IMG/VR virus record: IMGVR_UViG_2534682331_000010
Strand: one strand, 5' to 3'
Length of the DNA: 28,052 nucleotides
From: a virus
Taxonomy: Duplodnaviria > Heunggongvirae > Uroviricota > Caudoviricetes
Shown: piece by piece, positions 3,001 through 6,000 of the stretch
Numbering within the stretch: the stretch's first letter is position 1
Layout: the number at the start of each line of letters is the position of its first letter
Position numbers: made by a program

Positions 3001-6000
3001 CTACTGTCTGAAAATATAGAACCAACAGCGGTAAACATATCACTTGAGCCTTCAATAATTGCACAAGATGATGTTGAAGAGTTAGATGAAAAATACCCAC
3101 CAATCACCGTTGCTTGTTTACTGTCCTTTACTCTTAGAGCAGGACCAGTAGCAAGATCTGACATAACGTCAATCAACCATGTCCAATCCACCCCATCAAT
3201 ATCTATTGCTGATAGACCAGCGTCTTCGTAACCGCATGAATAAAATAAGTCACCATGCAACTTAAGCCCCTCTGTAATTGTTGAGACATCTTTTTTTTCA
3301 CATCTAGCATAAAACCCGGAATAACAATCTGAGTATGTATTCATAAGCATTCTTGAGTTTATTTGCCCGCCTTCAAATCTTATGCCCCAACTGCTAGCTG
3401 CAAACCTGTTATGTCTAATATCAAGCTCAGCTGCAGAATACCCTGATGGTGAATATATGCATGCGTTTAAAAAAGAAAATGAACACTCTTCTATCGTAAT
3501 AAGAGCACTCTTAATTAGAAAGCCAACACAATTACTTCCACTCTTTCCATATTTTGATGTAATGTTTAACCCATAAAATCGACTAAACTCAGAACCTTTT
3601 AATAAAATAAAGCAAGCATCTCCGTTTTTTAATTGCGCAATTACACTAAGTTTTTTAGAATCTCCATAAATACAAACCACGCTGTCTATTTCAATATTAG
3701 AAATGTAATACGGTAGGTTATTTCCTGGAACATAAATTTTTTTTGTTTTAGAGCTATCACTCTTAATGGCTTGTATGGCCGAATTAAATGCAGCGCTACA
3801 ATCAGTTCCAGGGATGGCTCCAAAATCAGTTATGCTAATAATCTCTTCATTTTTATCATGTTGTGTAGTGGTTATAGATCCGTCATGCGGCTGCTTTACG
3901 AAAACAACGTGATCATTAACAAGACCTGTTAATGTATCTGATTGTAGTTCACGTTTCAGCATATCAGGGTCATACTTCAGCACATTCGGAAAATAGAACT
4001 GCTGCGAACCGTACGCATCATAAACAGCCATAGAATGGCCTTGCACAGTTACGAACTTGGCAATCTGTCCGTTATATACGGGGTAACCTGCAGCGTTAAT
4101 GATGATTGGTTGCGATACAGGAACGTGAGAGCCGTCTTCGTTCTCTACATAAACCTGAATCTGGTTTTCAGAATTTACCGGGTCAGTGTCAATTTTACCG
4201 ATATAAATTTTGCCATTGGCTACGGCTTTAAAAGAACGAGCCATAGTGAAGAGTTGCGAAGGCATACTCACTACAACATTGGCTGTAATGTCTGTCATTT
4301 AATTTGCTCCAGATACAAGGAATGGCCGCAGCATGGCTACGGTGAGTTTTTTGTGATAAAACAACTTTTTCGGAAGTTATTTTGTTCGCTTTTCGACCTA
4401 CACTTTTTGTGTAGGTCTCTCCTTCAAGCTCATTGCCTAAGCGTGGCTACGGTGAATTTTGGGCATAAAAAAACCCAGCCGAAGCTGGGTCGTTGCGTTG
4501 GTTATCTGTCAGTAGTTATGTACTGAAGGAGGTAATTCTTTATTCTTAAGTCTCATCCATGCGGAAAGATTCGTTGGTCCGTCTGGCTCATTAATATCAA
4601 CATCTCGTGTGTGGTTTATTAAAACGTCTCTCGCCATTCCGATAACATACGAGAACTCATGACCGTAGTCGTAGCATCTGCCGGAATAGTTCGATTGAAT
4701 TTGTTTTAGCGCCGGATACAGTTCGCGGAATAATGCCTGTGAGCGGTTGGCATAATCCCATAACCATACAAGGCTGTTTGCTTCTTTTGCAGAAAGCTCG
4801 TTGGTTTTCTTCTCTTGTTTGCCAATGAACTCACCTTCAAGTGGAACTCGAGCTGCAAGTGACAGTGCTTCGGTAAACTGCTCCTCACTGATTTCTTTGT
4901 ACGAACATCCAAAATGGGATTTCAGTGACGACCACATGGTGATCATCGCCTTAGCCTGTTTTTCTTTTGGCAGAGACTGACCGCGACTCATGACAAGTTG
5001 TTTAATGGCTTCCTGCTGTTCAGTGGTGATTTTACCCGGCAACGCCTTTTTAGCTTTGCGTGGGTTAACTACATGGCCTTTAGTCCAGTACTCGTAGAGA
5101 ACATCGTCACACTCTTCCTGATACTGGATTACCTTGTCGCGGATTTCATGGCGGACTTTGTTAGGACTGATGGTTTGCAGCCAGCCAGCAAGTTTACGAA
5201 GTGCCAAACAAATAATCTCACGGCACTGTTCATCACCAGGAAGCTGCATTGTGATTTTCACAATGGAGGTTTTAAACCGTTACTTTATTTTCGTAAACTG
5301 TGAAGCCCAATCCATACCCATGCCTTCAACGATAGGTTTCATTGGGGTGTACGGCTCACCGTTGTGATTGACAACATAAAGCTCTGCGCCGTGGAATGGT
5401 ACATTGATAGTAGATACTGCTGTTGCTATACTTTTCATGTCGTTAATTCCTATGCGTGGTTTTACGATACCGAAGCCCTGACTGTTACCGCAGTTGGGGC
5501 TTCAACGTTTTGATTTCTTTGCCGCATCAAGCATCACTTCTGAAAACGTGCGCTTGCCACTGAATACTCTTTCTCTTCTCAATTTTTCGTTCGTGCCAAA
5601 TGATTCGCCATGAACAAAATTTGGTCTTAAAATGGTAATCGCAATCTCTTTGACTACTGCATCCAAGCGAATCACACCGTTATCCCCTCTCTCTTCAGGC
5701 TGTCTATCAGGCGCTTGATAACCTCTGAGTTAAACGACCTGCACTCTTCCTTTGCCCTGCTACCGATAGCATCCTTTAACGACTGCGGCATCCTTACCAA
5801 AATCTTACTTATTTCGTTCTCCATGTTACCCTCCACACAAACAACTCTTTTCGAATACAAAAGATAGCAAAGTGAGTATATCTAGTCAAAATTTTTTTGC
5901 ATACACTTTGATATCAAATTGAATACCAAAGGTGTGATATGGCAAAGGGTGTGTCAATTTCTCCAACTACGGTAAGAATCCCTGAATCTTTACGCGAGGC

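Follow-up and report, generated by a model that had tools for sequence, protein, structure and literature searches.

A probable recombination scar beside the ant terminator in the tailspike leader of a P22-like phage

The ant-tailspike spacer in described phages and at this locus

The region between the antirepressor gene ant and tailspike gene 9 of phage P22 was reportedly studied by Berget, Poteete and Sauer in 1983 and by Adams, Brown and Casjens in 1985. We analyzed the corresponding 210-bp spacer (4299-4508) of IMG/VR virus record IMGVR_UViG_2534682331_000010, a 28,052-nucleotide stretch of Caudoviricetes DNA that is called the window below, always at its full length. In P22, tailspike expression depends on late transcription passing through the ant-tailspike region (PMC2629481, the epsilon34 genome paper). 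The interval between genes 16 and 9 has been termed the ‘ant moron’ and is in rapid genetic flux, with degraded gene remnants (Villafane et al. 2008, PMC2629481), and a boundary-sequence model of module exchange is summarised in PMC3233612. The GenBank record of phage CUS-3 labels the same interval ‘boundary sequence’ bsq1. A search of the literature on boundary sequences and P22 gene 9 expression returned general background only.

In the window, a P22-type ant, a match to the antisense RNA sar and a tailspike gene adjoin, so the window holds the immI/tailspike end of a P22-like phage. It shares with P22 the gene order arc/sar/ant, terminator and tailspike. Unlike P22, the window phage is of the E. 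coli/Shigella type and has a different receptor domain, an Sf6-like int/oac region and a stop in ant; the P22 spacer hairpin differs from that of the window by one compensatory pair. CUS-3 and HK620 likewise carry a conserved terminator and leader directly upstream of the tailspike gene, kept in HK620 without ant, and different upstream modules join this leader at the 5' edge of a short repeat. They differ from the window in having a short spacer with one repeat and neither a gene fragment nor a hairpin. The window also resembles the described ‘ant moron’ remnants (PMC2629481) in carrying a non-functional antirepressor gene fragment between gene 16 and the tailspike gene, but its remnant is only ~54-88 nt long, is of the P1 Ant/KilAC type and not the P22 Ant type, and is bracketed by a duplicated leader.

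It is probable that the spacer consists of the known terminator t_ant, a conserved leader with a stem-loop and ribosome-binding site, and a dispensable 110-bp recombination scar. The 110 bp combine a duplicated segment of the leader with a P1-Ant-type gene fragment. The terminator was already known, and what is newly resolved is the mosaic-junction scar beside it. The spacer contains these features:

4465-4491, minus strand: factor-independent terminator t_ant, from a terminator scan; stem GACCCAGC/GCUGGGUU, loop UUCG, U7.
4432-4460, minus strand: distal repeat copy R', from a repeat search; degenerate stem-loop, missing in short-form relatives.
4380-4433, minus strand: P1-Ant/KilAC-type antirepressor gene fragment, codons ...D-ELEGETYTKSVGRK-ANK..., from nucleotide matches inside intact genes.
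4395-4417, no strand assigned: 9-bp palindrome or hairpin GACCTACAC-N5-GTGTAGGTC within the gene fragment, from a repeat search and RNA folding.
4351-4379, minus strand: remainder of the insert, a weak AU-rich stem-loop and T-rich tail, from alignment of insert-bearing leaders and minimum-free-energy folding.
4322-4350, minus strand: proximal repeat copy R, a segment of the tailspike mRNA leader, from a repeat search; stem-loop at 4326-4342, kept in relatives.
4299-4321, minus strand: proximal leader with Shine-Dalgarno sequence GGAG (4307-4310), read from the sequence and kept in relatives.

The t_ant element has the architecture of an intrinsic terminator, a G+C-rich stem-loop directly before a U-tract. 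The stem-loop (4491-4472, minus strand) begins 18 nt past the end of the ant open reading frame (ORF) at 4509, comprises 8 pairs, five of them G-C, and folds at -14.1 kcal/mol (z = -4.2); U7 follows at 4473-4467. The element aligns with the ‘ant terminator’ of P22 (BK000583) and with ‘tANT’ of HK620, a remnant that is labelled in that record though the ant gene is gone. It would stop transcripts from the ant promoter, while antiterminated late transcription would read through to the tailspike gene; such readthrough in this phage is suggested by analogy with P22.

The two repeat copies are 29 nt long (4322-4350 and 4432-4460), agree at 24 of 29 positions and start 110 nt apart. They share an exact core of 12 nt, TGGCTACGGTGA (plus strand), which occurs in the window at two sites only, namely R and R', and a weaker extension (4348-4365 and 4457-4474, 78%) brings the repeat to ~43 nt in total. 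The hairpin has arms at 4395-4403 and 4409-4417 with 9/9 pairs and a 5-nt loop, reaches -15 kcal/mol as RNA (z = -6.1 against shuffles) and has a core that is single-copy in the window. As a control for chance, the 210-bp spacer was shuffled 500 times with dinucleotides preserved: a 24/29 repeat was never reached (the best shuffle had 19), and a 9-bp hairpin arose in three shuffles. The original prediction, made from the bare sequence, had described two 17-bp direct repeats 110 bp apart, a 9-bp-stem hairpin between them and a terminator after ant. The spacing stands; the 17-mer contains one mismatch and belongs to the longer 29-nt repeat. The hairpin is perfect at 4395-4417, and the terminator corresponds to the minus-strand stem-loop with U7 that is homologous to the annotated P22 element.

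On the minus strand, 4299-4508 contains no ORF of at least 30 amino acids, and a promoter scan of the spacer predicted no promoter-like site. An Rfam 15 scan of 3800-6500 at E <= 1 returned only sar, at 5440-5507, outside the spacer. The hairpin was also considered as a terminator and ruled out, given that a U-tract is missing on both strands. A plus-strand ORF of 163 codons (4035-4526) spans the spacer and is almost certainly spurious and not a gene, because the 110-bp indel described below, not being divisible by three, would shift its frame in relatives, and because it runs antisense to the tailspike start.

Makeup and origin of the 110-bp insert

The 210 bp of the spacer are 97.1% identical to those of P22, which also has the two repeats, the hairpin and the terminator. 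The spacers of CUS-3 and HK620 are ~100 bp long, with a single repeat copy and without the hairpin. Alignment with them shows that the window and P22 are longer by exactly 110 bases, which correspond to one copy of the repeat together with the interval separating the two copies. The short form is also found in epsilon34, Kapi1, N7 and others, including many prophages. As this short spacer is the form seen in most relatives, the additional 110 bp are an indel.

The long form is patchily distributed and in the minority. It was found in 35 of the 94 matching records of a phage collection, mostly P22 and its derivatives, while many E. coli and Salmonella phages in the same collection have the short form. 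Complete E. coli genomes matched in 513 of 5426 cases, and 28 of these carry the full long form at 98.6% identity. A further sample of 80 viral contigs was gathered with the tailspike head-binding domain as the sole anchor. It contained no 110-bp form, nine copies of a homologous 78-bp form and ~32 short ant-type spacers, and the remainder had other upstream modules. The regulator-binding array proposed in the original prediction is not supported, since the distal repeat and the hairpin are missing from most relatives with the same head-binding domain and the distal copy is degenerating.

In a database of 2.3 Gb, the middle 44 bp of the insert match the interior of antirepressor genes from APSE-7 and Erwinia phage Midgardsormr38 at 97.7% identity (E = 9e-12). 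The matched genes encode a KilAC/ANT domain and are members of the P1 Ant1/Ant2 family (KilAC, PF03374), which includes P1 ant1/ant2 and the antirepressors of Stx phages and APSE. Their codons D-ELEGETYTKSVGRK are near-identical to the hairpin and its flanks, and the window minus strand reads ...NELEGETYTKSVGRKANK... at this point. The fragment is identical to the intact genes L366 and L365 at 40/40 to 43/44 positions, and its 3' continuation AAAAGCGAACAAAA matches another gene allele (L389). Unlike these genes, the window copy is a fragment within a leader that does not code for protein, and it has neither a promoter nor a minus-strand ORF. It also lacks a start codon, and the in-frame upstream sequence reaches a TAG. 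As the flanks match intact antirepressor genes and a start codon and ORF are lacking, the hairpin was brought in on a gene fragment of ~54 nt or more and is probably not a device of the spacer.

Two other derivations were tried and rejected. The repeat itself might have come from an Ant gene, whose upstream codons are slightly similar, and 9-45 of 200 shuffles scored equally well in local alignment. The leader might be related to the arc leader; an alignment of the window with P22 and L015 over their mnt/arc promoter regions gave no homology.

The 78-bp sister insert lies in the leaders of nine other P22-like phages (L128, L131, L133, L136, L144, L149, L160, L161 and L270). It differs from the 110-bp insert by an indel of 32 nt with an ACAAAA micro-repeat at its flanks, and the 32 nt it lacks belong to the part at 4351-4379. 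A search for a donor of this piece found its 19-mer in 10 viral contigs, none of them at a second kind of locus; the 8 of 10 contigs whose flanks were examined are all tailspike leaders. The sister inserts come in two further alleles, and their stems match other Ant-type gene alleles. Each of the three insert alleles (ACCTACAC.., CACTACAC.. and ACTACGAA..) pairs with a different gene allele: the second, with stem GCACTACAC/GTGTAGTGC, at 37/38 positions, and the third, ACTACGAAATTTTCGTAGT, with a Stx-phage F451-type allele at 45/53. All three inserts join the repeats at the same boundaries, and microhomology at the junctions spans 3-9 nt (left, CGAT; right, GC(G)AACAAA or TCA).

A block of R', insert and R that is ~99% identical to that of the window occurs in L082 (IMGVR_UViG_3300045988_007063, 9030-9205). 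There it lies between an mnt-like gene and a tailspike gene with a much more divergent head-binding domain and leader. L082 has no ant gene and no t_ant, and homology stops at the outer repeat edges. From this comparison, the block seems to move as a unit.

The two repeat copies are not equivalent, because the proximal copy keeps its stem pairs and the distal copies lose them. The proximal copy forms the stem-loop CCGUAGC-CAU-GCUGCGG (4326-4342, minus strand; 7 bp, -10.4 kcal/mol, z = -3.25) ~25 nt upstream of the tailspike ribosome-binding site. Among 11 distinct proximal variants from relatives, nine keep 7/7 pairs and two keep 6/7; the loop varies freely, and one variant has a C-G to U-A double change. 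This proximal leader is kept upstream of this class of tailspike irrespective of the upstream gene. The window distal copy has a degenerate stem-loop with 5/7 pairs and -4.3 kcal/mol, and distal copies across lineages retain only 4-5/7 pairs, one lineage excepted. The proximal copy is a maintained leader element and the distal copy a decaying duplicate, whereas an array of binding sites would lead one to expect the reverse.

The 5' edge of the proximal repeat marks a recurrent junction of variable ‘ant moron’ modules with the conserved leader. In the 80-locus sample, similarity to the ant-type leader runs through t_ant at 32 loci. It stops at the 5' edge of the proximal repeat (-46 to -40) at 23 loci from three contexts, inside the repeat at 3, at the ribosome-binding site at 4 and at the ATG at 18. 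The repeat edge is the commonest upstream junction (23/48 breaking loci), and at least five upstream contexts converge on the tailspike leader. A short sequence is conserved here between non-homologous flanking modules, as expected of a boundary sequence. The edge could either be a recombination-attracting sequence or merely mark the limit of the selected leader.

The original prediction had also seen a possible recombination site for tailspike exchange and had proposed to look for a break in homology at the repeats across different tailspikes. Homology between the window and P22 extends from within ant across the entire spacer and covers the first 175 nt of the tailspike gene, and protein identity to P22 gp9 collapses after residue ~113-120, beyond which the receptor-binding modules differ. 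The break lies inside the tailspike gene and not at the repeats. Exchange of the tailspike at this site does not hold as proposed, as P22, with another receptor domain, shares the spacer at 97%; recombination as such is borne out by the duplication footprint and the upstream junction.

We propose that the 210 bp form the spacer between the cistrons of ant and gene 9, which lies distally in the late operon. Its working parts would be t_ant and the last ~50 nt, with the small stem-loop and the ribosome-binding site, and the insert would be dispensable for tailspike expression. Unequal or illegitimate recombination, or else template switching, is the most likely origin of the insert, with short microhomologies within the ‘ant moron’ as the joining points. 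The insert would later have been passed between phages and could be lost by recombination or slippage between the repeat copies, and copy-choice gain together with slippage loss would produce the patchy distribution. Quasipalindrome template-switch mutagenesis and deletion between short direct repeats are part of general bacterial genetics, and they would explain the paired stem changes, the microhomology junctions and the gain and loss of the block. The result is mostly clarifying, in that a structure-rich region of one of the best-studied phages is resolved into its parts. It also offers a small example of ‘ant moron’ remodelling, with leader duplication, capture of ~54 nt of foreign sequence at microhomologies and block transfer between phages.

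Alternative readings of the hairpin and repeats

Several observations weigh against a dispensable scar. The hairpin is perfect in every insert-bearing lineage. The window and P22 differ at 6 of 210 positions, and two of these form a complementary change from C-G to A-T at the loop-closing pair. By our own estimate such a paired change has a chance of ~0.002, which hints at selection on structure or at palindrome-templated mutation. The interior of the insert hardly varies between E. coli prophages, Salmonella phage P22 and the divergent L082, and this could mean constraint and not recent spread. The 224-nt leader folds better than its shuffles (z = -4.4). Lastly, identical boundaries combined with three gene-matched alleles need either short-flank gene conversion or repeated capture at one site. 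The perfect stem, the paired change, the invariance and the leader fold can be explained without selection, by palindrome-templated mutation and recent spread.

The same observations could be read as signs of a selected cis-regulatory RNA module of the tailspike leader, in which the hairpin and the stem-loops on either side of it would adjust the stability, processing or translation of the mRNA or the readthrough beyond t_ant. All leaders of the long form and of the 78-bp form have a perfect stem, P22 carries the compensatory pair, the leader (z = -4.4) and the hairpin (-15 kcal/mol) are strongly folded, and the insert is near-invariant over divergent hosts and contexts. The same palindrome is apparently under structural constraint in its source genes as well. 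We nevertheless think this reading unlikely: the insert is missing from most phages with the same head-binding domain and t_ant, the hairpin has no U-tract and hence is no terminator, the stem alleles follow those of the source genes and do not evolve in place, the distal repeat decays, and no Rfam family matches.

A related possibility concerns the source genes. Ant-family homologues were gathered solely by the flanking peptide motifs [VI]RNN[KV][FL]IE and KQALRVAA, so that the sample was unbiased towards the hairpin. A scan of genome contigs with the Ant N-domain gave 10 loci. In every enterobacterial homologue collected, the same codons hold a palindrome of 7-10 bp that has no mismatch or just one, and the arm sequences are of several kinds. 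In P1-Ant/KilAC-type antirepressor genes the codons are E-x-Y-x-x-x-V-x, and the palindrome-bearing loci are L329-L408, L319-L327, L412, L415, L416 and L411, which holds P1 ant1/ant2 with the palindrome at ~1624-1650. Across 30 sequences, 98.5% of cells pair, against 87% in shuffles; five of nine pairs show changes on both sides, and slid partners pair in only 16-40%. With the P1-like phage SJ46, the Stx2a phage F451 and Acinetobacter phage IME285 (43% protein identity) added, 6/9 pairs covary. Pairing over the samples is 96.7-98.5%. The encoded amino acids shift with the palindrome arms (T..G, H..V, F..K, G..T), and the neighbouring codons vary synonymously. The palindrome is missing from Pseudomonas and Vibrio homologues at 35-38% identity. 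Wobble pairs, taken as a guide to the strand, favour the sense strand in two alleles and the antisense strand in two.

An Rfam scan of the intact Ant-type gene region at E <= 5 gave no match to the palindrome, the P1 record has no feature there despite its dense annotation, and none of the papers searched quotes the hairpin, repeat or palindrome sequences. The palindrome might be a functional RNA or single-stranded DNA hairpin of P1-Ant-type genes, kept by compensatory changes despite an amino-acid cost in homologues with as little as 43% protein identity. The allele-matched copies in the tailspike leaders would then be retained because they bring the late tailspike message under the same hairpin-dependent control or serve as a decoy for it, and the block would be a portable regulatory cassette and not a scar. 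We hold this to be slightly more doubtful than a selected RNA module of the leader. In the Ant genes the palindrome may control antirepressor expression in a way not recognised so far, or be a rearrangement hotspot. These by-products of the analysis, the leader stem-loop and the intragenic Ant1/Ant2 palindrome, possibly carry more weight than the spacer result.

The block could also be a miniature mobile element or a site-specific insertion, in which case the repeats would be att-like cores or a target-site duplication. Direct repeats delimit the block on both sides, its boundaries are identical in two unrelated contexts, the ant type and the mnt type of L082, and close relatives are polymorphic for its presence. 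A transposable element of the MITE (miniature inverted-repeat transposable element) kind has terminal inverted repeats with a short duplication and copies at unrelated loci. Here terminal inverted repeats are missing, the only inverted repeats being the internal hairpin and matches between A/T runs. A duplication of 22-29 nt far exceeds the target duplications of transposons, and the 19-mer was seen at no second kind of locus in the 10 viral contigs that carry it, eight of them with examined flanks. The block is single-copy in the window, its interior is homologous to a coding gene and no recombinase is associated with it. A mobile origin of this kind is highly improbable.

Least credible is that the repeats, with or without the palindrome, are DNA sites for Mnt, Arc or a late regulator of tailspike transcription: two similar 29-nt sequences do lie one insert apart with a perfect palindrome between them, and the immI repressors Mnt and Arc are encoded nearby, but the sites are conserved among relatives in neither number nor sequence (most have a single copy and no palindrome, and the distal copy diverges), the spacer has no predicted promoter-like site, the outer palindrome arms covary with different sequences, as in a nucleic-acid stem and not a protein operator, and the annotated P22 Mnt/Arc operators lie in the mnt-arc region and not in the spacer.

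Neighbouring genes

The spacer is flanked by the following genes:

4509-5261, minus strand: 3' ORF of ant, a P22-type antirepressor, from the ORF list; Pfam P22_AR_N and P22_AR_C.
5280-5438, minus strand: N-terminal 52 codons of ant as a separate ORF; in-frame TAA read in translation.
2475-4298, minus strand: tailspike gene, 607 amino acids, from the ORF list; head-binding domain at residues 1 to ~113.

The Shine-Dalgarno sequence GGAG lies 8 nt ahead of the tailspike ATG (4296-4298). An antisense RNA of phage BTP1, STnc6030, overlaps the tailspike 5' end; BTP1 lacks this spacer, and the comparison does not apply. An in-frame TAA (5280-5282, minus strand) breaks the frame of ant after codon 52, within a stretch where the sequence departs from that of CUS-3 ant. 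The gene may have become a pseudogene, or its expression may start only at an internal GTG at 5261.

Over the first 6 kb, the closest relatives of the window are the E. coli phages HZ41, N7 and Kapi1, and the int/acetyltransferase (oac) region is Sf6-like. Position 1 of the window is the exact ATG of the integrase gene (1-1152), which converges on the tailspike gene, suggesting that the source record was opened at int. An acyltransferase gene resembling an O-antigen acetylase (1308-2365, plus strand) is frameshifted into ORFs at 1308-1547 and 1595-2365, and is likely a pseudogene or the product of a sequencing error.

Upstream of ant, the plus strand encodes a homologue of the antisense RNA sar (Rfam RF00262, 5440-5507, 81.8 bits). 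It is preceded by a good promoter-like site, TTGATA-17-TATACT with an extended TG (window 5404-5507, plus strand). In L015, a strong minus-strand terminator (within 7385-7487) lies just upstream of the start of a KilAC-type antirepressor gene, and a promoter-like site lies ~50 nt inside that gene. By its likeness to P22 sar, this arrangement suggests an unannotated antisense RNA.

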